Below are positions 183-15,956 of a stretch of 64,000 bases of DNA, piece by piece. The translations under genes and the position numbers were made by a program. The notes below the pieces were generated by a model that saw nothing but the letters and a program-made list of their open reading frames with translations, searched no databases and was not told the DNA's origin. Within the stretch, counting starts at the first letter, position 1. Every line of letters starts with the position of its first letter. Source of the DNA: a virus. Lineage: Duplodnaviria > Caudoviricetes. Where the stretch lies: positions 36,575 to 100,574 of the IMG/VR virus record IMGVR_UViG_3300026522_000002; one strand, given 5' to 3'.

Positions 183-317
183 TCCTCACTTTCGTAGTTA
201 GCACGTGACCACATCAGGCTGCCAGCTTGGTGTAGTCAGCAATATAAGAATTGCCAGTTATATAGTAATATCCCTTAATGTATTTCCTTCCACATACGAT
301 CAAAACCTGTCAGGCCC
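183..317 (-). ncRNA. ssrA: tmRNA coding piece (two-piece, permuted tmRNA)
   Basis: Starts GGGCCTGACAGGTTTTGAT at 317. Resume context ATAACT-GGC. Tag ORF 255->214 is GNSYIADYTKLAA-TGA. The 3' boundary is approximate. Confidence 0.9.
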
Positions 318-398
318 GATTGTAACCTTTTTCGCTCATGTCGCCGCCAAACTTAGCATTTACCGAATATCGCTATGGTTACATAAAAAGTCGCGTCG

Positions 399-465
399 GG
401 TGGACCTGGGGGTAGTCGAAACCCCGTCTCGCATGCGTATCTCATACAGGATAAAACTTCGATAG
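399..465 (-). ncRNA. ssrA: tmRNA acceptor piece (two-piece, permuted tmRNA)
   Basis: ...CGCATGCGAGACGGGGTTTCGACTACCCCCAGGTCCA. CAGGTCC pairs with GGGCCTG (317-311) including G3.U70, and CGCATGCG pairs with CGTATGTG (P2). The 5' boundary is approximate. Confidence 0.9.
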
Positions 466-499
466 AAACATAATTGATCAGATTATGCTCTAAACAGCT

Positions 500-6000: not shown

Positions 6001-6073
6001 TTGCCCGTATGGGAGTTGAACCCATGTTTCCCAGATCAGATACTGGGCGCTCTCCCCGTTGAGCCATCGGGCA
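6001..6073 (-). tRNA. tRNA-Gln(CTG)-like with 8-nt anticodon loop
   Basis: TGCCCGA TG GCTC..GAGC G CCCAG TATCTGAT CTGGG AAAC ATGGG TTCAACT CCCAT ACGGGCA A. Confidence 0.7.
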
Positions 6074-14214: not shown

Positions 14215-14303
14215 GCGAGGGAAGCTGAAACTTGGAGACTCAGCAGCTACAGCCGATAATCTGTGGGAGTAGAAGTTTGTTGGTTCGAATCCAACCCCTC
14301 GCG
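14215..14303 (+). tRNA. Atypical tRNA (GAT/Ile-like anticodon, 8-nt loop)
   Basis: GCGAGGG/CCCTCGC acceptor, GCTG/CAGC D stem, TACAG CCGATAAT CTGTG, GTTGG TTCGAAT CCAAC. Confidence 0.6.
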
Positions 14304-14432: not shown

Positions 14433-14507
14433 TGCTCCATGGTGTAGCGGTAGCACGGGAGGCTCTAACCCTCCAGGTCCGGGTTCGACTCGATGGTGGG
14501 GCGACCA
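14433..14507 (+). tRNA. Amber suppressor tRNA (anticodon CTA), Gln-type body
   Basis: TGCTCCA TG GTGT AGCGGTA GCAC G GGAGG CT-CTA-AC CCTCC AGGT CCGGG TTCGACT CGATGG TGGGGCG A CCA. Confidence 0.92.
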
Positions 14508-14529: not shown

Positions 14530-15956
14530 ATGGAATTGAAGATTAAAAGACTAACTGAGGATGCAATCCTCCCAATTCGCGCCCATAAAGGAGACGCTGG
14601 AATTGATTTAACTTGTACAACAATTACTCAGGAAATTAACGAGTGTGGTCAGTTGATTATAGTATATCATACTGGCTTAGCAATTGAAATTCCTGAAGGT
14701 CATGTTGGGTTGTTGTTCCCTCGCTCAAGCATTGCAAACAAGTCATTGTCGCTTACGAATAGTGTAGGTGTAATAGACGCTAAACTCTGCATCGTTTTTT
14801 AACCTATCGATGCAACCAGTTCTATTATATTTTGCGTTATCTTTATATAACCAAAAAAGATATCGATATGCTTATAACAAAAACATGTTTAATGTGTGGA
14901 AAAGAGTTTCAAGTTCCACATTGGAGAAAAGATAGCGCAAAATATTGTTCCGTAGAATGTAGACAATCTGCATTACATGGAGAACTTAATTGTACGTGTG
15001 AAGTTTGTGGAAAAAGATTTCACATAAAAGAATCTCAATTAAACCGATATAAACATCATACATGCTCAAAGAAGTGTATGAATGAGTTAAAAAGAACATT
15101 ATATTCTGGAATTGGAAATCATCAATATGGTTTAAAAGGAGATTTAAATGCTTCGTTTAAAGGAAAAGAATTAACAAAGATCAACAACGATTTAGTAGAT
15201 ATTTACGTTTACTGTCCAGACCATCCGTATGCAAATAAAAACGGAAGAGTCGTTAAACACAGATTAATCGTAGAACAGCATTATGAATTGTTTGATTTTA
15301 AATACTTCGAAAAAGTAAAAGGGCGTGTAGTATTAAAAAAGACTACTCAAATTCATCATATAAACGAAGATCACAACGACAATAGAATAGAAAATTTAAT
15401 ACCCGTTACAAGGTCTGAACACAAAATAATACATAATCTTTTTAAAGATATTGTGAGGGATCCGAAAAACGGAAGAATAACTGGCGTCATTAAACAGGGT
15501 GAATTGCTGGAAAAGCCGGAAGCGGCCAATCAGCAGCCAAGCTTAGATGGTAACATCTCTGAAGGTTCAGAGACTAGCAGTCGAGTCCTTATTGAGGACG
15601 GTAATACTGCCAAGAGTGCCCTGCCCAGTAATACTGGTGAAGATATAGTCCGACCTGCAGATATAACAAACGAAACTGCAGAATTGCAGGATAAAGAGCC
15701 TGTAAGTTAACATATGGGTTATCGCGGTGAGGTTATGGCTAAGATGCGCTCCACTACAGATGTGGTTCCTGCAATCTACAAACCAGGCGAGCGATTCGCA
15801 CAACTTGTTATCGTTCCAATTCCAGAAGTAGAGATAACTGAAGTAGCCGAACTTAGCGAAACAGATCGTGGTGAAGGCGGCTTTGGTTCAACAGAAAATA
15901 CTACAGAAGCTCCCGCAGAGATGGACTCTGTAGAGCCAGCTGTGGCAGCTGAGTAA
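14530..15956 (+). CDS. dut: dUTPase, spliced: join(14530..14781,15717..15956), 163 aa
   Basis: Motifs GDAGIDL, PRSS, GVIDA|GYRGE, ERFAQL and RGEGGFGST; the exons join in frame. Confidence 0.95.
14812..14839 (+). promoter_or_regulatory. Putative late promoter inside the intron
   Basis: GCAAC-N18-CGTTA, the same motif as 12253-12280, 28 nt upstream of the HNH ATG. Confidence 0.6.
14868..15710 (+). CDS. Intron-encoded HNH homing endonuclease with N-terminal Zn-finger repeats
   Basis: CxxC...YCSxxC repeats; HP...HRLIVE...[16 protein letters not shown]...EHKIIH. Confidence 0.9.
   Translation: MLITKTCLMCGKEFQVPHWRKDSAKYCSVECRQSALHGELNCTCEVCGKRFHIKESQLNRYKHHTCSKKCMNELKRTLYSGIGNHQYGLKGDLNASFKGKELTKINNDLVDIYVYCPDHPYANKNGRVVKHRLIVEQHYELFDFKYFEKVKGRVVLKKTTQIHHINEDHNDNRIENLIPVTRSEHKIIHNLFKDIVRDPKNGRITGVIKQGELLEKPEAANQQPSLDGNISEGSETSSRVLIEDGNTAKSALPSNTGEDIVRPADITNETAELQDKEPVS

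Follow-up and report, generated by a model that had tools for sequence, protein, structure and literature searches.

The DNA considered here is a window of 64,000 nucleotides (nt), the right-hand 64 kb of a 100,574-bp IMG/VR virus record with direct terminal repeats (IMGVR_UViG_3300026522_000002). Its minus strand carries a phage-encoded, circularly permuted two-piece gene for transfer-messenger RNA (tmRNA), arranged in the order acceptor piece (460-401), spacer (400-318) and coding piece (from 317). The phage is a rumen member of Crassvirales, family Suoliviridae, of Oafivirinae-like type. It encodes crAss-like capsid, portal and terminase proteins, and its capsid protein is 83-89% identical to those of the Suoliviridae/Oafivirinae phages cr272_1, cr124_1, cr7_1, cr131_1 and cr130_1. 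The same DNA was detected in bovine, sheep and goat gut samples.

The gene is recognized both by ARAGORN and by a covariance model. ARAGORN calls a permuted tmRNA with the tag GNSYIADYTKLAA and a TGA stop. The merged permuted-tmRNA model of Rfam, RF04321, matches positions 460-214 over its full length with 51.4 bits, above its gathering cut-off of 47 bits (E 3.7e-7 for the 64-kb window). A first-pass annotation, made from the letters alone, had proposed a two-piece tmRNA with this tag at 183-465. That observation is confirmed, and all the features it listed were found at their minus-strand coordinates in a check of the sequence. The proposed range holds for the tmRNA pieces; as a whole functional unit it is too short, since a conserved tRNA-like minihelix extends down to 123. 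It is highly probable that 460-123 as a whole comprises a circularly permuted tmRNA gene that is functional and, downstream of it, a tRNA-like processing element. The features are collected in Table 1. Position 460, given there as the 5' end of the acceptor piece, is merely the start of the Rfam model match. The discriminator base A401 is followed by CC, the CCA end being only incompletely encoded, and a short A/U-rich stretch of the coding piece lies between GGGCCTG and the tag frame. The CTGATCA motif upstream of the gene may be a transcription-start or processing signal in the Oafivirinae; it was not found in the Boorivirinae copies.

Table 1. Coordinates of the tmRNA locus, its downstream minihelix and other features of the window
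Feature	Position	Strand	Remarks
CTGATCA motif	475-481	-	some 55 nt before the T arm; acceptor-piece alignment: nearly all Oafivirinae copies
Acceptor piece	401-460	-	Rfam, ARAGORN 3' tRNA domain, covariation, cofold
P2b 5' strand	449-444	-	within acceptor piece
P2a 5' strand	436-429	-	within acceptor piece
GAC	428-426	-	between P2a 5' strand and T arm
T arm GGGGT/TTCGACT/ACCCC	425-409	-	acceptor piece
Acceptor 3' strand CAGGTCC	408-402	-	then discriminator A401
Intervening segment, 83 nt	318-400	-	predicted to be excised
Coding piece	183-317	-	ARAGORN, Rfam, covariation, P5 duplex test, codon analysis, cofold; 3' end at 183 deduced
Acceptor 5' strand GGGCCTG	317-311	-	start of coding piece
GGTTTTGA	307-300	-	coding piece, before P2a 3' strand
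P2a 3' strand	299-292	-	coding piece
P2b 3' strand	283-278	-	coding piece
Resume codon GGC	255-253	-	coding piece
Tag open reading frame (ORF), GNSYIADYTKLAA	255-217	-	ARAGORN
Stop TGA	216-214	-	tag frame
P5 helix	237-231 with 213-207	-	duplex energies
Small hairpin CTAC-GAAA-GTG	197-187	-	coding piece, after tag
tRNA-like minihelix	123-182	-	folds as acceptor and T arm; starts 31 nt after the stop
Minihelix 5' strand CGGAGAT	182-176	-	
Minihelix T arm, loop TTCGAAT	147-131	-	
Minihelix 3' strand ATCTCCG	130-124	-	then C123
tRNA with 8-nt anticodon loop (UAUCUGAU)	6001-6073	-	ARAGORN 'tRNA-???', four-base anticodon tctg; Rfam tRNA 45.2 bits
CTA-anticodon (amber suppressor) tRNA	14433-14507	+	ARAGORN label tRNA-Pyl; start of TAG-recoded late region
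Group I intron	15429-15670	+	Rfam RF00028, 64.7 bits; inside span of ORF 14832-15710

By pairing, the two pieces can build an alanine-type tRNA-like domain consisting of a 7-bp acceptor stem, a T arm and P2. The acceptor stem (317-311 with 408-402) pairs at seven of seven positions and includes the G3.U70 wobble, with A401 as A73. P2 bridges the two pieces, 436-429 pairing with 299-292 and 448-444 with 283-279. The T arm has a TTCRANY-type loop and lies directly before the acceptor 3' strand, with no anticodon arm. These pairings were assessed by covariation in 30 diverged copies from related phages, aligned with MAFFT without reference to structure, and the pairs of P1, the T arm, P2a and P2b were counted. 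Standard pairs occupy 94.9% of the alignment cells, compared with 67.2% in shuffles, and none of 500 shuffles reaches the observed value. Changes on both sides are seen in 22 of the 26 pairs (shuffle mean 16.2), and the covariation score of 0.681 falls to at most 0.156 when the partners are slid by 1-3 columns. Within the acceptor stem, G1-C72, G2-C71 and G3.U70, which specify alanine identity, are unchanged in 30/30 copies, and pairs 4-7 covary; A73 is likewise invariant, and 53 parsed copies show the same pattern. All five T-arm pairs are 100% paired and change on both sides, P2a is 95.7% paired with both-side changes in 8/8 pairs, and P2b is 91.5% paired with such changes in 4/5 pairs. Cofolding of the predicted mature pieces of the window recovers P1, P2a, P2b, the T arm and P5 at -62.9 kcal/mol, compared with -53.6 +/- 3.3 kcal/mol for a shuffled partner (z -2.8). 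Both the alanine-type acceptor stem and the P2 helix across the two pieces, as described in the first-pass annotation, are thus upheld by the letters, the alignment and the cofold, and the same arrangement, with covarying stems, is found in Crassvirales relatives, where it had proposed to look.

The spacer between the two pieces behaves differently. The stem TGTAACC (383-377)/GGTTACA (327-321), noted in the initial description of the 83-nt segment, is present in the letters. As a functional structure it was rejected: the fold is no better than that of shuffled sequences (z +0.4), and it is not kept in relatives. Their spacers range from 16 to 231 nt, with neither sequence nor length conserved. 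In cr114_1, the spacer contains a tRNA-His(GTG) gene (L220:1679-1751), and tRNA-like T-arm hairpins lie inside the spacers of cr130_1, cr50_1 and cr10_1. The spacer is disposable.

Among 32 distinct tags, D-Y-T is invariant, while the tag Thr is written as ACT, ACG, ACA or ACC and the last Ala with four codons. Because synonymous codon changes keep the peptide, the comparison of codons shows the marks of a tag that is translated and under selection at the amino-acid level. The tag ends in TGA, as had been read at the outset, and the stops of the 32 tags comprise 21 TAA, 11 TGA and no TAG. The D-Y-T codons double as the 5' strand of a P5-like helix enclosing the stop. In the region after the tag, the register given by RNAalifold was unhelpful, and P5 was judged by duplex energies instead (z below -2 in 18 of 28 copies). 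The window tag ends in LAA and probably still marks peptides for proteolysis; the tags of most relatives end in VA rather than AA, and many contain NNIV.

The predicted mature RNA is compact, with pieces of about 135 and 63 nt (about 200 nt in all), half the size of the host tmRNA. P2b is separated from the resume codon by approximately 24 nt, and the stop from the minihelix by approximately 31 nt; the only structures found after the tag are P5 and a small tetraloop hairpin. PK1 is important in Escherichia coli tmRNA. In the phage RNA, no supported pseudoknot corresponding to PK1-PK4 was found by folding and by-eye comparison, no pseudoknot-aware search having been made. When checked by eye, pairing of the loop after P2b with the post-P5 region was inconsistent across relatives, and the 3' tail of the coding piece showed no consistent pairing with the acceptor piece's 5' tail. 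The first-pass remark that the RNA is very compact agrees with the present results.

An RNA lacking evident pseudoknots might also serve as a decoy, blocking trans-translation by the host instead of carrying it out. An RNA of mycobacteriophage DS6A that resembles tmRNA but has no tag inhibits endogenous tmRNA in E. coli, as cited in PMC11915505, and the canonical AA end is missing from most tags of the phage family, which would fit such a role. However, every copy keeps an intact tag frame, conservation extends to the resume codon, the synonymous codon changes show selection on the peptide, and the window tag ends in LAA, like the host ALAA. Action as a decoy is considered very improbable, and a tagging tmRNA is the preferred reading.

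Downstream of the tag, the minihelix combines a 7-bp acceptor-like stem with a T arm. It is not a tRNA: ARAGORN makes no call, the sole Rfam match is to tRNA-Sec (16.3 bits, E 3.1), and the 28 nt between the 5' strand and the T arm leave no room for D and anticodon arms. The element is found 24-49 nt after the tag stop in nearly all copies, across subfamilies. A perfect 7/7 acceptor stem is formed in 41 of 51 copies, compared with 16% for shuffled strands; 27 distinct stem combinations occur, with compensatory changes, and the middle measures 0-39 nt in most relatives. In one IMG/VR relative (L153), a real tRNA-Gln(TTG) gene (1799-1870) occupies the slot, 33 nt after the stop, and in Boorivirinae a near-complete tRNA-like gene is found there. 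No intrinsic terminator or sigma-70-type promoter was found within 1 kb of the tmRNA gene. The pattern suggests that the minihelix probably serves as a processing signal, at which RNase P would fix the 3' end of the coding piece, and the simplest reading of its origin is descent from a co-transcribed phage tRNA. An attP-type fragment of a host tRNA was also considered and was rejected, as both acceptor-stem strands covary.

The minihelix could alternatively be a decaying neighbouring tRNA gene without any role in tmRNA maturation. Real tRNA genes do adjoin the tmRNA gene or sit inside it in some relatives, and other tRNA-like minihelices occur elsewhere in the early region of the window. Decay alone, however, does not readily fit compensatory changes that keep the acceptor and T stems while the middle shrinks, a distance to the tag stop kept within 24-49 nt, or the lack of a detected terminator as another way to end the RNA. 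This alternative is regarded as somewhat unlikely, and the processing signal is retained as the preferred explanation. Further acceptor/T-arm elements that ARAGORN does not call were observed at 2918-2880 (minus strand, a bare minihelix of 39 nt), 6367-6296 (minus strand, about 72 nt) and 14215-14303 (plus strand, about 89 nt), and elements of this kind may punctuate the early region.

A maturation pathway consistent with these features can be proposed. Because neither a promoter nor a terminator of its own was found, the tmRNA would be transcribed within a longer early-region transcript. Host RNase P would cut 5' of G317 and 5' of the minihelix (at about 183/182), freeing a coding piece some 135 nt long. 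Trimming after A401 would fall to the host enzymes for tRNA 3' ends, and the CCA would be completed. The host alanyl-tRNA synthetase would charge the RNA, and host SmpB and EF-Tu would bring it to stalled ribosomes; no SmpB is encoded in the phage genome, and therefore the host protein must serve. Translation would resume at GGC, adding (A)GNSYIADYTKLAA, with an LAA end like that of the host degradation tag. Contigs from RNA libraries were also inspected. Of the contigs in X2, one has its start exactly at 401 and another stops at 305; X17, from a second study, ends at 304; and X3, from the same sample as X2, crosses the spacer and has an adapter junction at 177. Since these are assembled contigs and DNA carry-over is possible, the end at A401 is at most a weak hint and is not counted as evidence of processing.

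The same gene is found throughout much of the family. A full-length RF04321 match and an ARAGORN permuted tmRNA were obtained in all five named relatives searched, a pattern scan gave 51 IMG/VR loci, and 17 of 18 near-complete IMG/VR relatives chosen by capsid protein contain a match. In addition to Oafivirinae, the tmRNA is carried by Boorivirinae (cr50_1, 60 bits; cr10_1, 50 bits) and Uncouvirinae (cr114_1, 51 bits); for Loutivirinae and cr118_1, a copy is lacking or doubtful. A distant blastn search of 100-520 against the phage collection returned nothing, because the RNA is too short and diverged, and the homologues came from the covariance model and the pattern. Likewise, an exact 25-mer of the T arm and acceptor had no match in IMG/VR. 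The tmRNA is an old, widespread and dispensable trait of Suoliviridae, its dispensability following from the lack of a detectable copy in Loutivirinae and in G001, the closest relative by capsid protein.

The view that no such gene was known in phages of Bacteroidota did not survive this search. The gene is present in most public Suoliviridae genomes, and the RefSeq entry NC_055895.1 (cr7_1) already labels it 'transfer-messenger RNA, SsrA', a feature that a 'tRNA-Cys' overlaps. Full-text literature searches found no paper discussing tmRNA in crAss-like phages, and the word tmRNA is not in the text of the large crAss survey PMC7886860. The annotation is consequently already public, the biology is undescribed, and the RNA is set apart from known two-piece tmRNAs by size, by a tRNA-like flank and by its likely origin. 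Phage contigs with this tmRNA (three of about 100 kb, others of 39 kb and 2.6 kb) have been placed in metagenome-assembled genomes (MAGs) that bear the labels Segatella copri, Lachnospiraceae, Succinatimonas and 'bacterium'. Table S2 of PMC11915505 lists a few 'permuted' tmRNAs for Bacteroidota and Bacillota, some of which may stem from contigs binned wrongly in this way.

The distribution also bears on a possible connection with the genetic code of the phage. TAG must be read as sense in its late genes, and the window contains a tRNA with a CTA anticodon. The tmRNA could be an accessory of this recoding: the suppressor tRNA would read through TAG-ended host genes and TAG-ended host tmRNA tags, and the phage would supply an RNA with a TAA or TGA stop. 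The lack of TAG among the 32 phage tags fits this idea, as do the TAG stops in 3-4 of 30 host-family tmRNAs, including both Segatella copri MAGs. However, the TAG-ended form is a minority among the sampled hosts, and the absence of TAG stops from the phage tags is weak evidence, the tags being related. In addition, cr50_1 and cr10_1 use the standard code yet carry the tmRNA, whereas cr56_1, cr4_1 and G001 are TAG-recoded with no detectable copy. The link with recoding implied in the first-pass annotation is weakened by this distribution, and a recoding accessory is judged quite unlikely. Since the presence of the tmRNA does not track recoding, a general role is preferred, in which the likely benefit would be extra ribosome-rescue capacity in the infected cell rather than a service specific to TAG recoding. 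As a separate observation, the host tag GENNYALAA ends with TAG in both S. copri MAGs (L174 and L175) and in one other genome of the family, and an amber-suppressing phage would read through it.

The origin of the split form was examined by comparison with the tmRNAs of the host family, sampled in 30 genomes that were reached via the S. copri MAGs holding a related phage contig. All 30 encode one-piece tmRNAs of 395-400 nt. Where the tag was called normally, all host tmRNAs (27/27) use GGC as the resume codon, as do most phage copies, in agreement with the resume context of Bacteroidota type recognized initially. A TTTGA motif is present in 26 of the 32 phage sequences and in 28 of the 29 from hosts, the host form being GG(A/U)TTTGAC after the acceptor strand. 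By contrast, the three references used, namely the RF04321 consensus and two non-Bacteroidota tmRNAs, have TTCGA(C), and the consensus resumes at GCA. The 5' tRNA-like part of the phage RNA has a likeness of 0.63 on average and 0.73 at best to the host family, compared with 0.57 to the permuted consensus. When the lineage-specific Rfam models (RF01849, RF01850 and RF01851) were applied, beta_tmRNA gave a partial match confined to the tRNA-like domain, with 36.6 bits where the cut-off is 84; among the matches listed, none to alpha_tmRNA or cyano_tmRNA appeared at E up to 10.

Because the GGC resume codon and the UUUGA motif are shared with host-family tmRNAs, a separate permutation, as suspected in the first-pass annotation, is favoured by the sequence signatures, short of proof. 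The gene would most likely descend from a one-piece tmRNA of the Bacteroidota type; if so, its permutation would be separate from the alphaproteobacterial, betaproteobacterial and cyanobacterial ones. A bolder synthesis can be put forward tentatively, at slightly less than an even chance, in which Suoliviridae hold a fourth independently permuted tmRNA lineage, derived from Bacteroidota, free of pseudoknots, about 200 nt long and released by tRNA or minihelix 'punctuation'.

The competing explanation is horizontal acquisition: the donor, a bacterium or a phage, would already have possessed a two-piece tmRNA of alpha, beta or cyano type, and the gene would since have adapted to Bacteroidota hosts, so that the permutation would not be independent. 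The NNIV-containing, VA-ended tags of many relatives resemble cyanobacterial tags. The partial beta_tmRNA match also lies in the tRNA-like domain, and two-piece tmRNAs are common in marine phages (PMC9004378). Nevertheless, the lineage-specific parts of the alpha, beta and cyano models are unmatched, the GGC codon and TTTGA motif are common to Bacteroidaceae tmRNAs and unlike the RF04321 consensus, and the 5' tRNA-like part lies nearer to the host family than to the permuted consensus. Horizontal acquisition is accordingly held to be unlikely, and descent from a host-type one-piece gene remains the favoured origin.

Several points weigh against this overall picture of a functional, host-derived tmRNA with its own processing element. 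The RNA ends, charging and tagging are deduced from sequence. That the RNA works with no PK1 and with only about 24 nt ahead of the resume codon is an assumption, and the VA-ended tags of most relatives may not lead to degradation tagging. The signatures of origin are two short features, which could reflect adaptation to host SmpB and ribosomes after horizontal transfer. The minihelix of the window has a mismatched first T-stem pair, and its fold reaches a z of only -1.5. Finally, no detectable copy was found in Loutivirinae or in G001, in which neither a syntenic locus nor a tmRNA was found.

Other features of the genome were recorded alongside the tmRNA. The tRNA at 6001-6073 could be of a Gln(CUG)-like kind, its loop carrying one additional base, or it could decode a quadruplet. 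A group I intron similar to that of the window is found in G001 (L208:307-553, 65.9 bits). G001 itself is an IMG/VR contig of 101,232 bp with 91% capsid identity to the window phage; it is TAG-recoded, and ARAGORN found no suppressor tRNA in the 100 kb examined. In Dulem virus 42, cr131_1 and cr50_1, endonuclease genes, of HNH or other type, divide the major capsid gene into two or three parts.

The crAss-like phages are among the most abundant viruses of human and animal guts, and a conserved rescue gene in them implies that trans-translation capacity limits, or is manipulated in, the infection of Bacteroidales. If the RNA works, it shows how little tmRNA suffices: about 200 nt, two pieces and no evident pseudoknots. 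A separate permutation, if true, would be one more independent origin of this gene arrangement, and the flanking tRNA or minihelix punctuation would be a maturation layout undescribed for any tmRNA. The recurrence of the minihelix suggests a simple rule by which phages cut stable RNAs out of long transcripts. In surveys, mis-binned phage contigs may account for stray counts of 'permuted tmRNA' in non-proteobacterial phyla.

The closest parallels to the minihelix are the MALAT1 mascRNA and mitochondrial tRNA punctuation, which are tRNA-like 3'-end processing signals. In each case, an acceptor/T-arm mimic directly after a functional RNA would let RNase P make the 3' end. The present context differs in being bacterial and phage-borne, the element seemingly comes from co-transcribed phage tRNA genes, and its processing role is proposed.

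Bacterial two-piece tmRNAs are established in Alphaproteobacteria, some Betaproteobacteria and cyanobacteria, according to Keiler et al. 2000 and Sharkady and Williams 2004, as reviewed in PMC3985003 and PMC11915505. The phage RNA shares with these forms (RF04321; RF01849-RF01851) the order of acceptor piece, spacer and coding piece, the G3.U70 pair, a tRNA-like domain made from paired pieces, a tag frame in the coding piece and a maturation presumed to use tRNA-processing enzymes. It differs in that its Bacteroidota hosts have only one-piece tmRNAs in the 30 genomes, and in that its sequence fails the lineage-specific models. Its coding piece of about 135 nt has no supported pseudoknot, whereas known forms typically keep PK1 and PK2 (PMC3985003). 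The GGC resume codon, the UUUGA motif and the minihelix after the coding piece set it further apart.

Two-piece tmRNAs are also established in marine phages, and a published survey counted 53 two-piece forms in a set of 133 unique phage tmRNAs (PMC9004378). The tmRNAs of marine T4-like phages (OM43 phage Melnitz, pelagimyophages and cyanophages; PMC9004378) resemble the present one as phage-borne permuted ssrA genes unaccompanied by a phage SmpB, and they are likewise presumed to support or redirect ribosome rescue during infection. They group with alphaproteobacterial or cyanobacterial two-piece lineages and can carry a glutamine riboswitch (PMC9004378). The crAss RNA, in contrast, comes from gut and rumen Crassvirales, is smaller and has signatures like those of the one-piece tmRNA of the host phylum.

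The comparison with this one-piece tmRNA, as found in Bacteroidaceae (S. copri MAGs; 395-400 nt, tag GENNYALAA), covers both ends of the molecule. The GGC resume codon and the GG(A/U)UUUGAC sequence after the acceptor strand are alike, as are the T arm and acceptor end (GGAC...UCCA) with a CCA that is not fully encoded. The tags of both start with G and are N-rich, and the window phage shares the LAA end. However, the host gene is unpermuted, twice as long and equipped with full pseudoknot regions, whereas the phage tag is longer and contains the family-specific D-Y-T.
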